From Acidobacteriota bacterium (GTDB taxonomy: Bacteria > Acidobacteriota > UBA890 > WLXD01): a DNA stretch of 64,000 nucleotides. Positions 29,106 through 36,253 of this stretch are shown here, piece after piece (within the stretch, counting starts at the first letter, position 1; each line of letters opens with the position of its first letter). The notes under the pieces are model-generated. The model worked only from the letters and a program-made list of their open reading frames with translations. It searched no databases and was not told where the DNA came from. Location of the stretch: contig CBDFKD010000002.1 in the NCBI GenBank assembly GCA_965248695.1, positions 3,360,001 to 3,424,000 of the forward strand, written 5' to 3'. The translations under genes were made by a program, and so were the position numbers.

Positions 29106-32100
29106 TCAGCGCCGGCGGGCGCCTTCCCAGCGACTACCGGCGAGCAGCCCAGGGCGCGCCACATACACCGGTCCAGCGTAGAGTCGCTGTACCGCCGCGG
29201 CGCGCGGCGAGATCGCGTGCTGCTCGAGATGATCCGACGTGGCGGCGTCGATGCCTGCCGCCGGGCGAACGCCGTTGGCCGGCGCCTCGGTGCGGTCGGT
29301 GCGGTCGGTGCGGTCGTCGTCCACCGCGCGAGGGTCGCTCCGGCGCACCTGCGGCGGGGCCATCACCGTGATGTAATCGTAGAGTCGGGGCCGCAACGGC
29401 GACGCCGCCACGATCGGCGCCGGCGCCGTCTCCACCAGCTCTGCTATCGGCGGCAAGGAGGCAGTCACGGTTATCTGGTCGACCACGCGCGGCGGAATCC
29501 CTTTGACCCACTCGGTCACCGTCACGTACTCGTACAACCGCGGTCGCAGCAACGCTACTCGGCCCGCCGACGGGGGTCCGACCGGTACCAGTTCCGAGGC
29601 CTCCGGAGCCGCCGCGACGACCGTCTCCCGCACGCTCAGAGACACCGTGCCGTCGTTGTCCGCCGGCGCAACGGGGTCGGCGATCCGTACGTCGGCGGTG
29701 GCTTTCAGAGGCTTCTCGAGTGGTCCTACCGCGGCAACGGTGAGAGACGGCCAGGGAAGCAGCATCAGCGGCGGCGCGGTGGCCGTAGCAACCGCGTGAA
29801 GGCCAGTGCCCGACGACGGAGCCGGGCGCTCGGGCGGCGACGCCGAAACCGCGAATAACCGACTTGCGATAGAGCTCGGGTTCGTCCGCGGCGCTGTCGA
29901 CGGGTCGACGGCGGCGGCCGTCCTCGATGCGTCGGTCGTAGTGTCGACATGGGCGATCACGCGCTCGGCTCCGGCCGAAATCTCCAGCGACAAGTCCTGA
30001 TCGAAAATGAAGTCATCGATCACCTCTACCGGGCGACTCGGCCATTCAATGTCTGCATCGGGAGCGTTGTCGGGAGATAGCCGCAGGGTGTAGCTACCGA
30101 TCGGAACTCCGTCGATGCGGAACAGTCCGAAACGGTCGGTCGCTGCCCGTGCCACGACGTCTCCTCGACGGTCGACGAGCTCGACCATCAGCCCTGGAAG
30201 CTTGCGACCGCCAACGAGCACCCGGCCGGCAATGCCGAACTCGACGTCGAGGGTGAAATCGGCTCGGGTTATTGCCCCGGCCGCAACCTCGACCATGCGC
30301 TTGCGCTCTCGCGGCGACAGCTCGATCGGCAGGCGATCCGGATCGTATTCGACACGATGCACGCCCTCGTCGAGATTGGTCAACAGGTACTTGCCACCAC
30401 GAGTGGTCCGGGTCGCCGGTCGCCCGTTCACCAGAATGGGAAGCCCGGCGAGTTGCTCGGCATCGACCTTGTAGCCGTCGGCGACGCGAATGCGTCCGGC
30501 AATACCGCCGGTGGAGCCGTAGTTGCCCAGTGACCGTCCCGGAACGACACGACTGCCAGCAAAGGCAAGATCGCCGACCAGAGCAAACGACAGCGTGGCG
30601 CCACTCTCGCGGCCCTCCTCTGCCAACAGAGACTTCGTCTGATAGGTAGCCGCCAGGAGCATTCCGGGCATCACCGCGGCCTGCACACCGAGGGCGACTC
30701 CCAGCTGGCCATTGGTGAGCATCGGGCCGCCGATCAAGGCCGGTTGCCAGCGGCCTTTGCCGACCCACGACAGGCGCAGGGCCTGGCTGTGGCCGGCCCC
30801 TTGAACGATCTGGCCAAGCAGTGAGGCGCGAAGCCGGGCAGCTGGCTGCCATGTGAGGTCCAGCATGGCGTTGGGACCGCTCCGAGTCGCGCCCACGCGC
30901 CACCGCGACCCGGGCGACCACATCAGATCGAGGCGATACTCACCGTGGTAGTCGGGGCGAGCACGCATCGACATGCCGCGCCAGGGTCGGAACGACACTG
31001 CCGGGAGCAGGAACGTCTGATCACCGGTCTGCGACCGTCGATAGCGACCGACGACGCCGACCTCCCAGGTGCCGCTGACGCTCCGCCGTGAGAAATCGAC
31101 GAAATGGTCGGTGAACCGCTCACTGCCGAGCTGAAAGCCCGCCTCACGACCCTGCGAGCTGGCGAGGAAGCGCCACCGCCCAGCGTACGCCTCGATATCG
31201 CCCAGATAGCCGAACCGGCCTCCCGAGCCGGCACCGGCGAACGATGCCACGACGCCGCTGGCGAGCTGGCTGACAGCACCGACGACGAACTGGCGCCGGG
31301 CGCCGTCCTGCTGCATCGCCGTCTCCAGCGTCAGCTTGCTTGATACGCCGAATCTGCCTTGAGCGAAGCCGGCGGTGCCCGACAACTGTTGCGCCGGGTG
31401 AAGCGCATTGCCTTGCTGACCGAACCCACCCTGCATCATGAGCGCGCCGGAAGGCAGCATCTGCTGTGAGGCGCTGCGCGAGTGGTCGTGGATATCAATC
31501 GGCACCGTGGGAATGCCACGGTCGTAAATCAGTACCTCGACGCGATTGGCGCGCGATGTCGACAGTCGTACTTCGCGAAAATCATAGAGACCGTCGAGAC
31601 CCATCGTTTGCGCCGCCACATTCCGGTCGTTGACCCGGAGGACCGCGGTGCCCGCTGGAACGCCGACCCCGCTGATCGGAGCGCATCTGGCGGGGCAACA
31701 GCTCGGTGCCGCTGGCATTGACGCTGAACAGCTCGAACGGCTGATTCGTCCAGGCCCCCTGAAGGCCGGTCATCTCGATGCCGCTGAGCATGGGGTGGAG
31801 GCTGACGCGCTGGTATCCCGCCATCACCAGCTTGTCGTCGAAGCGACGCAACCAGGCGTATTCCGACAACCGCCGGCGCTCGGCAAACGACTCATCGTAG
31901 CGAATGCGCCACTGCCCCCCAGCGGCGCGGCCCGACAAGACCGTGTCCGCCGATGAAACGCCCAAATCCCGTCGCTGCGATCTGCGAGCCCGGATTTGCG
32001 CGGTCGACAGCGCCAGGCTGGGTGCGAAGGTATCGGCTACGGGGTCGGCCCGGCGGGCCGTCGTCTCACCGAAACGCGGCCCGACCCAGGGGATGTCGAG

Positions 32101-32550
32101 TAGCAACGCCAGGCGACTCGAGCTATAGGACACACGCATCGCCAGGCGATCGATCATGGCGCGCTCGCGAAGGTGAGCGACGCCCTCACTGGCCACGATG
32201 TCAGCCGGCTGCAGTATGACGTTGCCCAGCGGCGTCTCGATGGTGATTTGGTCGCCATCCTGGGTCAGCTGACAGCTGCAGACGGCGAGGAAATCGTCCA
32301 GCGGTAGCAAGAACTCGTTGCCGTCGAAGTACACCTCCGAGGCAGACAGCTCACGGTTGTCGACCACCAGGCCGAGGAGCATGCGCTGTGGATCGTCAGG
32401 GCGTGGCCCCTCCGATCCCGACGCCAACGGCGCTAACGTGAGCGCTGCCACCACGACTACGGCAACTCGCCAGGCTCGCCGCTCGCCACGCCCAAGGCGC
32501 ACCTGGCCTGGCTTGGCCGCGTTTGGCCGTTCGCGAGGCGAGATACGCAC
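29106..32550 (-). pseudogene. Fimbrial usher-like outer-membrane protein with carboxypeptidase-regulatory-like domains, split by a frameshift at about 31677
   Basis: ORF 31582-32550 (signal peptide, beta-strands, ...ELLPRQMRS) continues out of frame into ISGVGVPAGTAVLRVND of ORF 29106-31718; GGIAGRI, DPDRLPIEL and TDRFGLFRIDGVPIGSYTL domains. May be an assembly error. Confidence 0.65.
29288..29314. repeat. 9-bp tandem repeat (CGGTGCGGT)x3 in the usher tail
   Basis: Encodes DRTDRTDRT on the minus strand. Confidence 0.7.
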
Positions 32551-32574
32551 CGAGGTCGCTCCTGGGAATCGTGA

Positions 32575-32928
32575 TCAGCGCTGCGAGCCGTCGTCGGGCT
32601 GCTGCTGTTGTTGCTGTTGCTGGTCCGCTGCAACCGCCACGTCGGGGGCGGGAGGAACACTGAACTCGGTGGCGTCGCGAAATCGCTGCCCGTCGAGCTC
32701 ACCCTGGAATGCGAGCATGTAGCGTCCGGTGGGCAACGCATGCGGCTGAGCCAGCAGCAGCTCCCGGCGGGTGCCACCGAGCACCGGCGTGGTCGGCAGG
32801 CTGCCGTATTGAAGCAGGCCGGCGGGAGTTACCTCGGCTCCTGCCGACCACGACGAGCTCCGCGCAACGCTCGCCAGTGCTGCCCGGTCGGAGGTGTCCG
32901 CCTCAGGTAACGCCGGCGCGTTAGCTGT
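32575..32928 (-). pseudogene. N-terminally truncated gene, probably the C-terminal Ig domain of a pilus chaperone, with a poly-Gln tail
   Basis: Open frame without a credible start (GSLPTTPVLGGTRRELLL...LPTGRYML..GEL); lies directly upstream of the usher and 14 nt from the kinase stop. Confidence 0.45.
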
Positions 32929-32942
32929 TTAGCGGGCGGCGT

Positions 32943-33860
32943 TCAGCAGCCGCGCGTGACCGCCAACAGAATCGCGACAACCACCACCCCGCCGACGGCG
33001 AGCAGCACGGTACGGTTGCGCGCCGTGGCCTGAACGCGCGCCGCGGCTCCTTCGCCAATCCGTCCTTGCCGCGCCGGTACGCGCAGCTCGAGATCGTCGA
33101 GCGCAGCGACCAGGGCGCGCGGATCGGTGAAGCGTTCCCGCGGATCCTCGGCCAGGCAACGGAGGATCAGCGGATCGATCTCCGGCGGCACGTCAGCGCG
33201 TACCTGGCTCGGGATACGGAAGCTGCCCACCGGCACCGTGCCGGTGAGCAATTCGTAGCCCACAACCCCGAGGGAATACACCAGTGCGGCGGCGCCCGGA
33301 GCGGCGCTAGGATCGGCCATGCGCTCGGGCGCCAGATAGCGCACCGAGCCGAGCGAATGCACCGTCGCGGTCGAACCGGCATCCATCCCCAGTGGCGCCA
33401 GCGGCATCCCGACGTCGAGGACCTTCACCGCATGCCCCTCGCCGTGGACCAGGATCCGGTCCGGGTCGACACCCTCGCACGGCAGCCCCTTGCCATGCGC
33501 GTGACCCAGCGCCTTCGCGGTTCCACGCAGTACGTCGAGAACGTCGCGGGTGTCGAGGCGACGATGCGCCAGCACCTTGCGAAGCGACGAGCCCTTGACG
33601 AACTCCATTACCGCGTAGACGCGACCATCCACCTCGCCGCTATCCACAACGCGCACAATGTTCTCGTTGTCGATCCCTCGCGTCGCCGAGAGAACTTCGA
33701 GCCGCCGGCTGCGCAGCACGTCGGCCTCACCCCCCGCGTACAGCTTGATGGCCAACCCGAGCCCATCGGCGTCCACGGCCTTGTAGATGCCGCCAGCGCC
33801 GGCTTGGTCCAGGCGCGCCTCGATGCGATAGCCGCCGATCTGCTCGGGTACGTCAGTCAT
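32943..33860 (-). CDS. Hanks-type Ser/Thr protein kinase homolog, predicted pseudokinase, with C-terminal TM anchor
   Basis: GYRI..., LAIK, NIVRV, VMEFVKG, YLAPE, YSLGVVGYELLTG, RCLAEDPRERF. HRDxKxxN is replaced by CEGVDPDR, DFG by DVG, and the subdomain-IX Asp is lost. Confidence 0.88.
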   Translation of the reverse strand: MTDVPEQIGGYRIEARLDQAGAGGIYKAVDADGLGLAIKLYAGGEADVLRSRRLEVLSATRGIDNENIVRVVDSGEVDGRVYAVMEFVKGSSLRKVLAHRRLDTRDVLDVLRGTAKALGHAHGKGLPCEGVDPDRILVHGEGHAVKVLDVGMPLAPLGMDAGSTATVHSLGSVRYLAPERMADPSAAPGAAALVYSLGVVGYELLTGTVPVGSFRIPSQVRADVPPEIDPLILRCLAEDPRERFTDPRALVAALDDLELRVPARQGRIGEGAAARVQATARNRTVLLAVGGVVVVAILLAVTRGC

Positions 33861-35145
33861 CGATCTCGATCACCAGAGTGGCGGCACCGACCTGCAGCTT
33901 GTCGAGGTCGCGCAGCACGCCCGCGTCCACCGGCTCGCCATTGAGCTGCGTCCCGTGTGTGCTGCCAAGGTCCCGGACGTGGAACGCCTCATCTTCCCAT
34001 ACGATGCTCAGGTGCCGCTTGCTGGCTGCCGGGTCGGCTACGACCAGGTCACACCCCTCGTCGCGACCGACAACCATCTCGCTGGAACCGAGCTCGAGCG
34101 TGTCCCCGGAGCCCGCGCCGTCGCACACGACGAGCCTGGCGGACGGACGGGATCCCGCCTCCGGCTTCGAGCCAGCGCGCGGCGAGATCTCGAGAGTACG
34201 GATCGGGAACGGGATGACGATATCTCGGCGGCGGAAGTGCTCCCAGATCTCCGTCCGTAGCGTGCTCTCGATGCGCCGCAATGGACCCATGTCGTCGACC
34301 CAGGCGCGCAGCTCGTAGGTGATCGAGCTCTCGTCGAAGTTGCTGACATAGACCTCGGCAGACGGCCGTGCCAGCACGCCATCAACGGAGCTAGCGGCGG
34401 CCAGCATTGCCGCCTTGACCTTGTGAGGCGGCGTCAGAAAGTGAGCTCCGACGTAGATACGCGACATGTGCAGCGGGTGGGGATACAGGTAGTTGGTAAG
34501 CGTTTCTCGCGCCATATTGGCGTTCGGGAAGATCACCGTGTCGTTCTGGCGTGTACGGATCGAGGTCGTGCGCCAGGTGATCTGGGTAACGCGCCCCTCG
34601 TGCTCGCCGACCTGGATCCAGTCGTTGATGCGGAACGGGCGTTCGAGGGCGATCACTACACCGGCGAAGAAATTCGTCAGGATCGGTTGCAGCGCCAGAC
34701 CGAGCACCAGCGAGGTGACGGCACTGGTGGCCAGCAGCGGGCCGACGTTATCTTCCGGAAACGCCACCGAAACGATAATCACGCCTGACACCACGTAGAT
34801 GAAGAACCTCGTCACCCGTGGCAGCAACGGCGGCACCGAGATGTCCCACTGCCGCCGCAGCAGGACCTCGAAGCCGAAATAGGTGATTCCGCGAATCACC
34901 ATGACGACGACGAAGAGCCAGACCGTCGTCACCAACACGCCACCGCCGCGCCCCATGTCGCCGACCCCGAGGGCATTGGCGGCCGCAACACCGATGGCGA
35001 AAGCAAGCAAGGATATCGGCAACCCCAGCGCCCGCATCAGCGGATGGCGGCGGCGTAGAGCCAGCAGCGCGATGTAGACCACGACCGCGGGCACACCGCC
35101 GGCGAGCAGGGTTGCCGCCAGCGTCCCGCTAAAGGCGGTGGGCAT
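33853..35145 (-). CDS. MscS-family mechanosensitive channel fused to a C-terminal FHA domain
   Basis: LLATSAV..LVLGLALQ..LTNFFAG, RPFRINDWI, GRVTQITWRTT, FPN, IPFP; then an FHA domain with VVGR, ASKRH, DLGSTHGTQLNG, D.LQVG. Confidence 0.92.
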   Translation of the reverse strand: MPTAFSGTLAATLLAGGVPAVVVYIALLALRRRHPLMRALGLPISLLAFAIGVAAANALGVGDMGRGGGVLVTTVWLFVVVMVIRGITYFGFEVLLRRQWDISVPPLLPRVTRFFIYVVSGVIIVSVAFPEDNVGPLLATSAVTSLVLGLALQPILTNFFAGVVIALERPFRINDWIQVGEHEGRVTQITWRTTSIRTRQNDTVIFPNANMARETLTNYLYPHPLHMSRIYVGAHFLTPPHKVKAAMLAAASSVDGVLARPSAEVYVSNFDESSITYELRAWVDDMGPLRRIESTLRTEIWEHFRRRDIVIPFPIRTLEISPRAGSKPEAGSRPSARLVVCDGAGSGDTLELGSSEMVVGRDEGCDLVVADPAASKRHLSIVWEDEAFHVRDLGSTHGTQLNGEPVDAGVLRDLDKLQVGAATLVIEIDD

Positions 35146-35148
35146 GAT

Positions 35149-35187
35149 TAGTGGCCTGTAACAGATGATCGTTGCATATCGCAGATG
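35149..35187. repeat. Family-B dispersed repeat copy
   Basis: tagtggcctgtaacagatgatcgttgcatatcgcagatgg; near-identical to the copies at 45664 and 56429. Confidence 0.75.
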
Positions 35188-35275
35188 GGATTTGCGGGTG
35201 AGATCGAGGCGCGCGGAGGATGTCGATACGAATCGGCGCGATTCTAACAGGGCGCCGGCGAAGAACGCCCGCGAC

Positions 35276-36253
35276 TCAATCGTCCAGCAAGCCGTGCTCG
35301 CGCATCCACGTCTCGTTGAGCTTGGACAGATAGCGCTCGCCGGAATCCGGAAGCAAGGTCACCACCAGCGCGTCATCCGGGGCACTTCGTGCCACCCGGC
35401 GCGCCCCGACAACCGCCGCCCCTCCGGACGATCCAGTGAAGATCGCCTCGGTGCGCGCCAGCTCCAGGACGGCGCGATACGCCTCAGGATCGTCTACCGT
35501 GATGACCTCGTCGATAGTCTCCCACCACACGGTCTCCGGCATGAAGTCCTCGCCGATACCGTCGATCAGGTACTGGTGGATCTGCTCCTGCGGCGGCACC
35601 TGACCGTGCTCTCGGTAGTAGGTGTAGATCGAGCCGACGGTGTCCACTCCGACGACACGGATGTCAGGGTTCTTTTCCTTCAGGTACCTGGCTGCGCCAC
35701 TGATCGTCCCGCCGGTTCCCATTCCCGCGACCCAGTGGGTGATGCGTCCGTCGGTCTGGCGCCAGATCTCCGGACCCGTGCCGAGATAGTGGGCTTGCGG
35801 GTTGGCCTGGTTGTAGTACTGATACGGAAGATAGGCACCCTCCTCATCGCGCAGACGCTCGGCGACCTTGTAGTAGGAGCGCGGATCATCCGCATCGACC
35901 TCGGTCGGGCAGAGGATGACCTCCACCCCGAAAGCATGCAGCAAGGCGACTTTCTCTTTCGGAATCTTGTCGGCAGCGGTGCAGACCATACGATAGCCCT
36001 TGAGAATAGCGGCCATGGCCAAGCCCAATCCGGTGTTTCCGGAGGTGGGCTCCACGATGGTGCCACCGGGCTCGAGCTCGCCGGACTCTTCACCGGCAGC
36101 GATCATTGCCGGTCCGATGCGGTCCTTGACGCTCGATCCGGGATTGAACGACTCGATCTTGGCGACGAGCTCGGCGCCCTCGGGCCAGAAACGCCGCAAC
36201 CGCACCAACGGCGTGTCGCCGAGCGCGTCCAGTATGTCGTCGAGGATGTCCAC
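35276..36253 (-). CDS. Cystathionine beta-synthase / cysteine synthase family PLP enzyme (no CBS regulatory domains)
   Basis: GDTPLVRL, NPGSSVKDR, EPTSGNTG, GMGTGGT, GIG, PDSGERYLSK. Confidence 0.92.
   Translation of the reverse strand: MDILDDILDALGDTPLVRLRRFWPEGAELVAKIESFNPGSSVKDRIGPAMIAAGEESGELEPGGTIVEPTSGNTGLGLAMAAILKGYRMVCTAADKIPKEKVALLHAFGVEVILCPTEVDADDPRSYYKVAERLRDEEGAYLPYQYYNQANPQAHYLGTGPEIWRQTDGRITHWVAGMGTGGTISGAARYLKEKNPDIRVVGVDTVGSIYTYYREHGQVPPQEQIHQYLIDGIGEDFMPETVWWETIDEVITVDDPEAYRAVLELARTEAIFTGSSGGAAVVGARRVARSAPDDALVVTLLPDSGERYLSKLNETWMREHGLLDD

Follow-up and report, generated by a model that had tools for sequence, protein, structure and literature searches.

Why should a channel of the MscS family end in a forkhead-associated (FHA) domain, and why should its gene run into that of a Hanks-type kinase homolog with a degenerate catalytic loop? 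The question is raised by the 64,000-nucleotide stretch analysed here (the window; G000:C2:3360001-3424000 in our numbering), which comes from a genome of the phylum Acidobacteriota of 5.89 Mb in 2 contigs (G000). We find that the two genes form one conserved Acidobacteriota module, and their conserved pairing suggests an undescribed way of tying MscS-type channels to protein-phosphorylation signalling.

The channel and its partner

The original prediction had described two minus-strand genes overlapping by 8 nt, one encoding an MscS channel with a terminal FHA domain and the other a dead Hanks-kinase homolog with a C-terminal transmembrane (TM) anchor. Both open reading frames (ORFs) and the overlap were recovered where it had placed them, and Pfam, alignment and hydropathy agree with the description. 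The features of the module, in window coordinates and with the evidence for each, are as follows.

33853..35145, minus strand: MscS-FHA channel gene, 430 aa plus stop (ORF, Pfam, PDB sequence matches)
34642..35145, minus strand: membrane part of the channel, residues 1-168, predicted to form five helices of which the fifth is the MscS pore helix or TM3 equivalent (hydropathy scan, AlphaFold2 model)
34213..34641, minus strand: MscS cytoplasmic beta and alpha-beta domains, residues 169-311 (Pfam stretches 155-219 and 237-311, model)
34141..34212, minus strand: end of the MscS fold (PFPIRTLE) and variable Pro/Arg-rich linker, residues 312-335 (model, alignment of relatives)
33856..34140, minus strand: FHA domain, residues 336-430, with G360 R361, S375, H378, S395 T396, G398 T399 and N402 (Pfam, GarA profile alignment, conservation in 47 members, model)
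33853..33860, minus strand: 8-nt overlap ATGACTGA of channel stop and partner start (same arrangement in 4 other species of the genus)
32943..33860, minus strand: tail-anchored pseudokinase gene, the partner, 305 aa plus stop (ORF, Pfam Pkinase, PDB profile match, AlphaFold2 model)
33456..33479, minus strand: degenerate catalytic loop CEGVDPDR, partner residues 128-135 (alignment to relatives and PknB)
33324..33416, minus strand: activation segment DVG...APE, partner residues 149-179, with S163 T164 A165 T166 (alignments, model)
32946..33020, minus strand: C-terminal membrane anchor, partner residues 281-305 (hydropathy scan)

Pfam assigns MS_channel_2nd (75.2 bits, cut-off 20.2) and MS_channel_3rd (31 bits, cut-off 21) to the channel, with MS_channel_1st at 17.7 bits, under its cut-off of 23.1. 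A phmmer search of PDB sequences aligned solved MscS structures to residues 77-320 and returned no solved chain that spans both the MscS and the FHA parts. The AlphaFold2 model, built on a 47-row alignment (mean pLDDT 85.1), has helices at residues 3-31, 36-59, 64-99, 107-128 and 135-168, and taken together these results give the arrangement typical of the MscS family, in which the TM3 helix lines the pore and leads into the beta and alpha-beta domains of the cytoplasmic part. By analogy with solved MscS the channel is presumably heptameric.

The FHA domain (PF00498) is recognized at residues 358-420 with 58.2 bits (cut-off 20.7) and is confidently modelled over residues 336-428 (pLDDT 87-96). 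Among PDB sequences, residues 332-427 match the FHA domains of GarA, FhaA (TB39.8), OdhI and Rv1747 (structures 6cah and 6ccd), and when the FHA profile of the family is aligned with GarA (E 2.4e-17), its GR, S-x-x-H, G-T and N positions fall opposite those of GarA. In Rad53 and mycobacterial FHA domains the phosphate contacts lie at the Arg of GR, the Ser of S-x-x-H and the Thr or Ser before G-T. The corresponding Gly-Arg, Ser-x-x-His and Ser/Thr-x-Gly-Thr loops are all kept here: G360, R361, H378, D392, S395, G398, T399 and N402 are invariant among 47 family members, and S375 is retained in at least 90% of them. Judged by these residues the phosphothreonine pocket is intact, in line with the original prediction of a phosphothreonine reader.

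The partner has a kinase fold but lacks what an active Hanks kinase requires. Its Pkinase match (PF00069) reaches 70.5 bits (cut-off 31.7), the best PDB match of the partner family profile is PknB (5.6e-64), and the AlphaFold2 model (pLDDT 87.9) finds its best fold matches in PknB, PknA, Stk1 and PknI, headed by the PknB chain 6i2p_A of the PknB-GarA complex. The residues of the ATP site are kept (the Gly-rich loop AGAGG at 20-24, the VAIK Lys39, the alpha-C Glu55 and D149 of DVG), as is the APE motif. The expected HRDxKxxN, however, is replaced by CEGVDPDR, so that HRD has become CEG, with Gly130 in place of the HRD Asp and Arg135 in place of the catalytic-loop Asn; DFG has become DVG. As the HRD Asp and the catalytic-loop Asn are both gone, its sequence predicts that the G000 partner is unable to catalyse phosphotransfer, and we file it as a pseudokinase.

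The activation segment, which the original prediction had singled out as Ser/Thr-rich, includes GSTATVHSLGS (residues 162-172) and with it T164, whose codon lies at window 33369-33371 and whose column is Thr in 47 of 50 partners. In the profile alignment T164 stands opposite T171 of PknB and T166 opposite T173, which we take to be activation-loop phosphosites of PknB, and it is presumably through its activation loop that PknB recruits GarA. Model confidence is low here (pLDDT 72 and 54), suggestive of a flexible loop.

All partners carry one hydrophobic segment at about residues 285-325. In the present partner a single such stretch ends the protein, so nothing should be exposed outside the cell. 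Since the FHA domain follows the cytoplasmic MscS domains of the channel, and the kinase domain of the partner precedes its single terminal TM segment, both lie at the cytoplasmic face of the membrane.

Conservation of the pair and degeneration of the kinase

The original prediction had suggested looking at whether the MS_channel and FHA architecture keeps a kinase or pseudokinase neighbour, and it does so at every testable genome locus. In a first sample, 401 genomes of the phylum searched with the channel, matches that extend to the FHA end occur in at least 12, counted among the 150 matches listed (258 further matches were weaker; the unpublished genomes G049, G024 and G152 are counted only as being without a full-length match), and in a second sample of 301 genomes, drawn from the class of G266, 17 matched at E <= 1e-80, including two already present in the first. 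Of the 27 genome loci fetched, one ends within the channel gene and another has only 96 nt downstream. In each of the 25 testable loci a kinase homolog starts between -19 and +22 nt from the end of the channel stop. A metagenome scan with the C-terminal 140 channel residues yielded 80 loci, of which 34 include the complete FHA part; one of the 34 is flankless, and a kinase homolog lies downstream in 32 of the remaining 33, found by profile search in 30 (5 cut by the contig end) and by tblastn in 2 (the stop-bearing L051, and L084). The sole testable locus without a downstream partner, L082, has a kinase C-lobe about 1.1 kb upstream, at the edge of the locus; its downstream side holds an unrelated 259-aa ORF on the other strand. 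The module thus places an FHA domain on a membrane transport protein and an adjacent, co-oriented gene of Hanks-kinase type beside it.

In G000 the channel gene ends in ...GAG ATC GAT GAC TGA, with the ATG start of the partner inside that end. The partner start overlaps the channel stop by 8-20 nt in 21 of the 25 related genome loci and lies 5-22 nt past it in the remaining four, a recurrence of overlap or near-abutment which argues that the arrangement is not due to chance. A promoter and terminator scan of window 32300-35500 gave no signal above shuffled sequences, and a search of sequencing runs listed three DNA data sets, all from one study, and none of RNA. One locus, L016 (G153), has its channel match split over two frames (query 6-154 and 142-427), that is, a frameshift or an assembly error; its partner is full length and degenerate (HGS/DAA, with AFE for APE).

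The fusion itself is abundant in databases. A protein search scored 8000 candidates and placed 641 relatives at E <= 1e-10, of the 120 relatives listed nearly all carry PF00924 together with PF00498 under the bare name 'mechanosensitive ion channel', and the ESM Atlas holds one FHA and MS_channel cluster of 62 members, commonest in Acidobacteriota. The MscS-FHA fusion is therefore already annotated automatically, visible but uninterpreted.

How general is the catalytic defect of the partner? In a motif set of 50 partners, from which two truncated copies were left out, the VAIK Lys, HRD Asp, catalytic Asn and DFG Asp are all kept in just 14. The other 36 are degenerate, and their motifs fall into more than 10 combinations: this genus has CEG/DVG, and partners elsewhere have HGC/EPG, HGE/GFG, HGS/DAA, HRS or HRN with DLG, HLN, HRR, HEH, HRE, HRT/DFA and HRD/GFG. 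The catalytic-loop Lys is present in only 3 of the 50, and Arg precedes the Asn in most; even canonical partners read HRD-L-[N/T/S]-P-R-N rather than HRD-x-K-x-x-N, a loop presumably similar to HRDLAARN, the motif found in tyrosine kinases.

A tree of 48 partners, with four truncated or stop-bearing copies left out, requires at least five changes between canonical and degenerate states and places the G000 partner in a 7-row, all-degenerate clade that includes families f1 and f2 (SH-aLRT 98). Short, tail-anchored partners comprise 25 degenerate and 4 canonical sequences and long partners 10 of each, one partner being undetermined; TPR repeats follow the TM segment in all seven long partners tested. 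Since in some relatives the partner is canonical and bears a TPR domain on the periplasmic side, the form seen here, dead and tail-anchored, is a derived state. The tail anchors of the f1/f2 clade (also in L008, L010-L012, L052 and L063) end in a conserved R-G-C or R-A-C-G (window 32946-32957), with the terminal Cys at the outer face of the membrane.

Among the full-length copies of G000, G069 and G130, the dN/dS of the pseudokinase is 0.14-0.19 over 304-305 codons (NG86; dS 0.7-1.2) and that of the channel 0.11-0.13, and the first 160 codons of the G275 partner give 0.108 against G000. The pseudokinase is under purifying selection where it is full length. This, together with a dead loop common to the genus and an all-degenerate clade, excludes the alternative allowed for in the original prediction, that the substitutions are unique to this genome and reflect simple decay.

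A proposed mechanism and its alternatives

What might such a pair do? Our preferred reading, held with about even confidence, is that the FHA domain of the channel binds the trans-phosphorylated Thr164 of the co-translated pseudokinase, which then serves as a regulatory subunit of the channel. The partner is presumably translationally coupled to the channel gene, its C-terminal anchor tethers the kinase domain to the cytoplasmic side of the membrane, and the cytoplasmic cage of the channel ends in FHA domains. We infer that Thr164 would be phosphorylated in trans by one of the cell's many other Hanks kinases, that the FHA domains would bind phospho-Thr164 of the membrane-tethered pseudokinase, and that the bound partner would change the gating, assembly or clustering of the channel. 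G000 has 38 PF00069 matches, 37 of them over the cut-off and some being pieces of one gene, so kinases able to act in trans should be plentiful. In relatives with canonical, TPR-bearing partners, autophosphorylation upon an outside signal could take the place of the foreign kinase. A complex prediction of the FHA part (A1 38-140) with pseudokinase residues 1-270 scored 0.00 against a mark of 0.32; it was run with no controls, phosphothreonine is not representable in it, and it is evidence neither way.

The nearest relatives of the channel suggest how far this reading might extend. The next-best channel relatives in the phylum, with 30-38% identity over the core and ORFs of about 470-560 aa, are of the bCNG type, and a cNMP_binding domain occupies the place of the FHA domain in all ten tested; Pfam finds no cNMP_binding match in the MscS-FHA channel. 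The two types share the same channel core and append a sensor domain after the cytoplasmic alpha-beta domain, which in bCNG channels is cNMP-binding, whereas in MscS-FHA channels it is an FHA domain that comes with a dedicated partner gene. With FHA in place of a cNMP-binding domain, the expected ligand is a phosphoprotein rather than a small molecule. It is possible, and we put it forward tentatively, that MscS-FHA channels are phosphoprotein-gated counterparts of bCNG channels whose ligand is a phosphothreonine on the dedicated, co-translated kinase or pseudokinase, the latter acting purely as a regulatory subunit; this last element follows from the repeated independent loss of catalytic residues in partners that kept the activation-loop Thr. 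That MscS-FHA channels are gated by tension cannot be taken for granted, since bCNG relatives are described in a 2026 review as giving E. coli no protection from downshock (PMC13591265).

Several observations weigh against the regulatory-subunit reading, and most concern the fate of the partner in this genus, where it is truncated or stop-bearing in three of five species (G275, G118 and G130). The partner ORF ends at 168 aa in G275 and at 196 aa in G118, with homology lost after about residue 165, and the G118 deletion extends into the neighbouring RND-pump gene. A search of the G275 and G118 genomes at E <= 1e-25 found no second partner piece elsewhere, and so no sign that the C-terminal half had been split off or relocated. 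Against its close relative G069, the G118 remnant has a dN/dS of 0.51, compared with 0.17 for the channel, indicative of relaxed selection. As the partner is disrupted in three of the five species while the channel is intact in four, the channel can dispense with it, at least there; the partner is constrained where intact and dispensable in some close relatives. In addition, a structural role may account for the conserved activation-loop Thr, the S-T-N-G-T loop of the FHA domain has His397 in place of its canonical Asn, a position that is variable across the family, and the locus counts come from related organisms that are not independent, so that they describe the module and are no statistical test.

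The disruptions raise the alternative that in this genus the pseudokinase is a functionless relic on its way out, with the FHA domain reading other phosphoproteins or nothing, which we consider unlikely. Besides the three disrupted copies and the relaxed G118 remnant, this alternative is favoured by the position of the gene, whose 3' end is a synteny breakpoint in the genus (window 29106-32942 against L001-L004): downstream of the partner, G069, G130 and G118 encode an RND efflux pump in the opposite orientation, and G275 and G000 each have different genes. The dN/dS of the full-length copies, near that of the channel, and the low value of the N-terminal half in G275 speak against it, as does the age of the dead state, for the all-degenerate clade spans f1 and f2 with full-length genes, a TM anchor and T164. 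The third disruption, moreover, does not look like a loss of the partner only. In G130 (L010) and the near-identical metagenome contig L051, a TAA at a partner Tyr codon just after the VAIK strand is accompanied by a TAG at a channel Trp codon within the FHA domain, and Leu replaces the VAIK Lys, indicating either joint inactivation or sequencing error; the two records share the same changes and may derive from the same data. The RND-pump gene beside the module is likewise broken into overlapping ORFs in L003 (G118) and L004 (G069), the contig names of these assemblies suggest long reads, and some frame breaks in metagenome-assembled genomes (MAGs) may be sequencing errors.

Quite unlikely, in our view, is a cis or inter-subunit arrangement, in which a kinase phosphorylates the channel and the FHA domain binds that site, switching or clustering the channel, and the adjacent gene supplies the enzyme, or in dead forms an adaptor for another kinase, rather than the ligand. 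Self-binding by FHA domains of the GarA/OdhI type is a precedent. A flexible linker also precedes the FHA domain of the channel (blocks at residues 311-330 are modelled at low confidence, pLDDT 57-60), and Rv1747, according to the accessible text, is phosphorylated by PknF on Thr in an unstructured region beside its FHA domains (PMC8339232). In the channel family, however, the linker varies in sequence and in length (about 17 to 35 residues), the alignment of relatives has no conserved Thr or Ser position within the linker proper, and the nearby, nearly invariant T317 (in IRTLE) belongs to the last conserved element of the MscS fold. The 36 of 50 partners that lack at least one core catalytic residue would, furthermore, need a foreign kinase anyway.

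That the FHA domain is a phospho-independent protein-protein or structural module, and the pairing a constitutive complex or an unrelated shared function, is very improbable: the YscD-type, phospho-independent family PF16697 does match the channel at 56.1 bits and the loop Asn is not conserved, but the residues that contact the phosphate in characterised FHA domains are invariant or nearly so in the 47 members, and the closest solved relatives (GarA, FhaA, OdhI and Rv1747) are all phosphothreonine readers with Hanks-kinase partners.

Known systems, genomic context and significance

The precedent named in the original prediction was the MviN (MurJ) pseudokinase of Mycobacterium tuberculosis. 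Its central statement stands, in that PknB is reported to phosphorylate MviN in trans, upon which MviN recruits FhaA (PMC12599244), but the closest precedent is PknF with the FHA-bearing ABC transporter Rv1747 of the same species, encoded in one operon in which the kinase regulates the transporter, judging from the portions of the reports at hand (PMC3138270, PMC3908365, PMC8339232). Both that pair and ours set an FHA-bearing membrane transport protein beside a gene for a membrane-anchored Hanks-type kinase. They differ in the transport protein (an ABC exporter in Rv1747, an MscS-type channel here), in the FHA domains (two and N-terminal in Rv1747, one and C-terminal here), in gene order, the channel coming first in our module, and in the kinase, since PknF is described as regulating Rv1747 through Thr phosphorylation, whereas the partner here and in most relatives is catalytically dead. 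The cognate active kinase of modules of the PknF-Rv1747 type is thus missing in G000; among relatives, the 14 of 50 noted above are canonical at the four core residues.

MviN-FhaA resembles the proposed module in combining a membrane pseudokinase with FHA recruitment, and is its mirror image in layout: the MviN pseudokinase forms one protein with the transporter, with FhaA as a protein on its own, whereas here it is the channel that carries the FHA domain and the pseudokinase that stands alone. The phosphosite also differs, lying in the C-terminal tail of MviN and, as a candidate, in the activation loop here. PknB-GarA is a third comparison, as the partner profile and model match PknB best and the FHA domain matches GarA best; GarA, however, is a soluble metabolic regulator and PknB is active, whereas the FHA domain described here lies within a channel and its kinase-like partner is inactive. 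The review that names the pseudokinase families ActPs1-3, GLW, CP1, DYD and DLHK ties none of them to a channel or to Acidobacteriota, and the words 'mechanosensitive', 'MscS', 'channel' and 'Acidobacteri' do not occur in it (PMC12599244).

No description of an MscS-FHA fusion or of such a system was found in full-text literature searches, whose scope excluded supplements and subscription journals; within that scope the original prediction's view that no system of this composition had been described still holds. The MscS review has no mention of FHA or forkhead domains, phosphorylation or kinases, and it presents the control and non-osmotic roles of MscS-like channels other than E. coli MscS as poorly explored (PMC13591265).

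Upstream of the module in G000 lies a PALP enzyme, and downstream are a 322-aa ORF without a Pfam match, a CarboxypepD_reg protein of 870 aa and a multicopper oxidase; GC content is 0.70 around 28-30 kb of the window. Pfam finds no phosphatase, kinase or FHA gene among these window neighbours. In a Thermoanaerobaculia MAG, a membrane protein with a PP2C/SpoIIE-like motif, recognized by eye, is encoded upstream of the module (L005:1784-3163, minus strand), and as a candidate third member it was rejected, having no counterpart in the other loci at E <= 1e-5 (most flanks being 1.5-2.5 kb). In L026 (G029) a homolog of the partner kinase (34% identity to the G000 partner over 189 residues) lies about 400 nt downstream of a bCNG-type MscS gene, whose product has cNMP_binding at its C-terminus. 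This is the case in one of 18 bCNG-type loci viewed at a 1.5 kb flank, and kinase neighbours may therefore extend beyond FHA-bearing channels.

If the regulatory-subunit reading is true, the module would be the first link between the MscS channel family and bacterial Ser/Thr phospho-signalling, in a form widespread in the Acidobacteriota, a dominant but little-studied phylum of soils. Its partners, moreover, form a natural series from kinase to pseudokinase, running from canonical, TPR-bearing proteins to dead, tail-anchored ones beside the same channel partner, and so lend themselves to the question of why bacteria retain pseudokinases.

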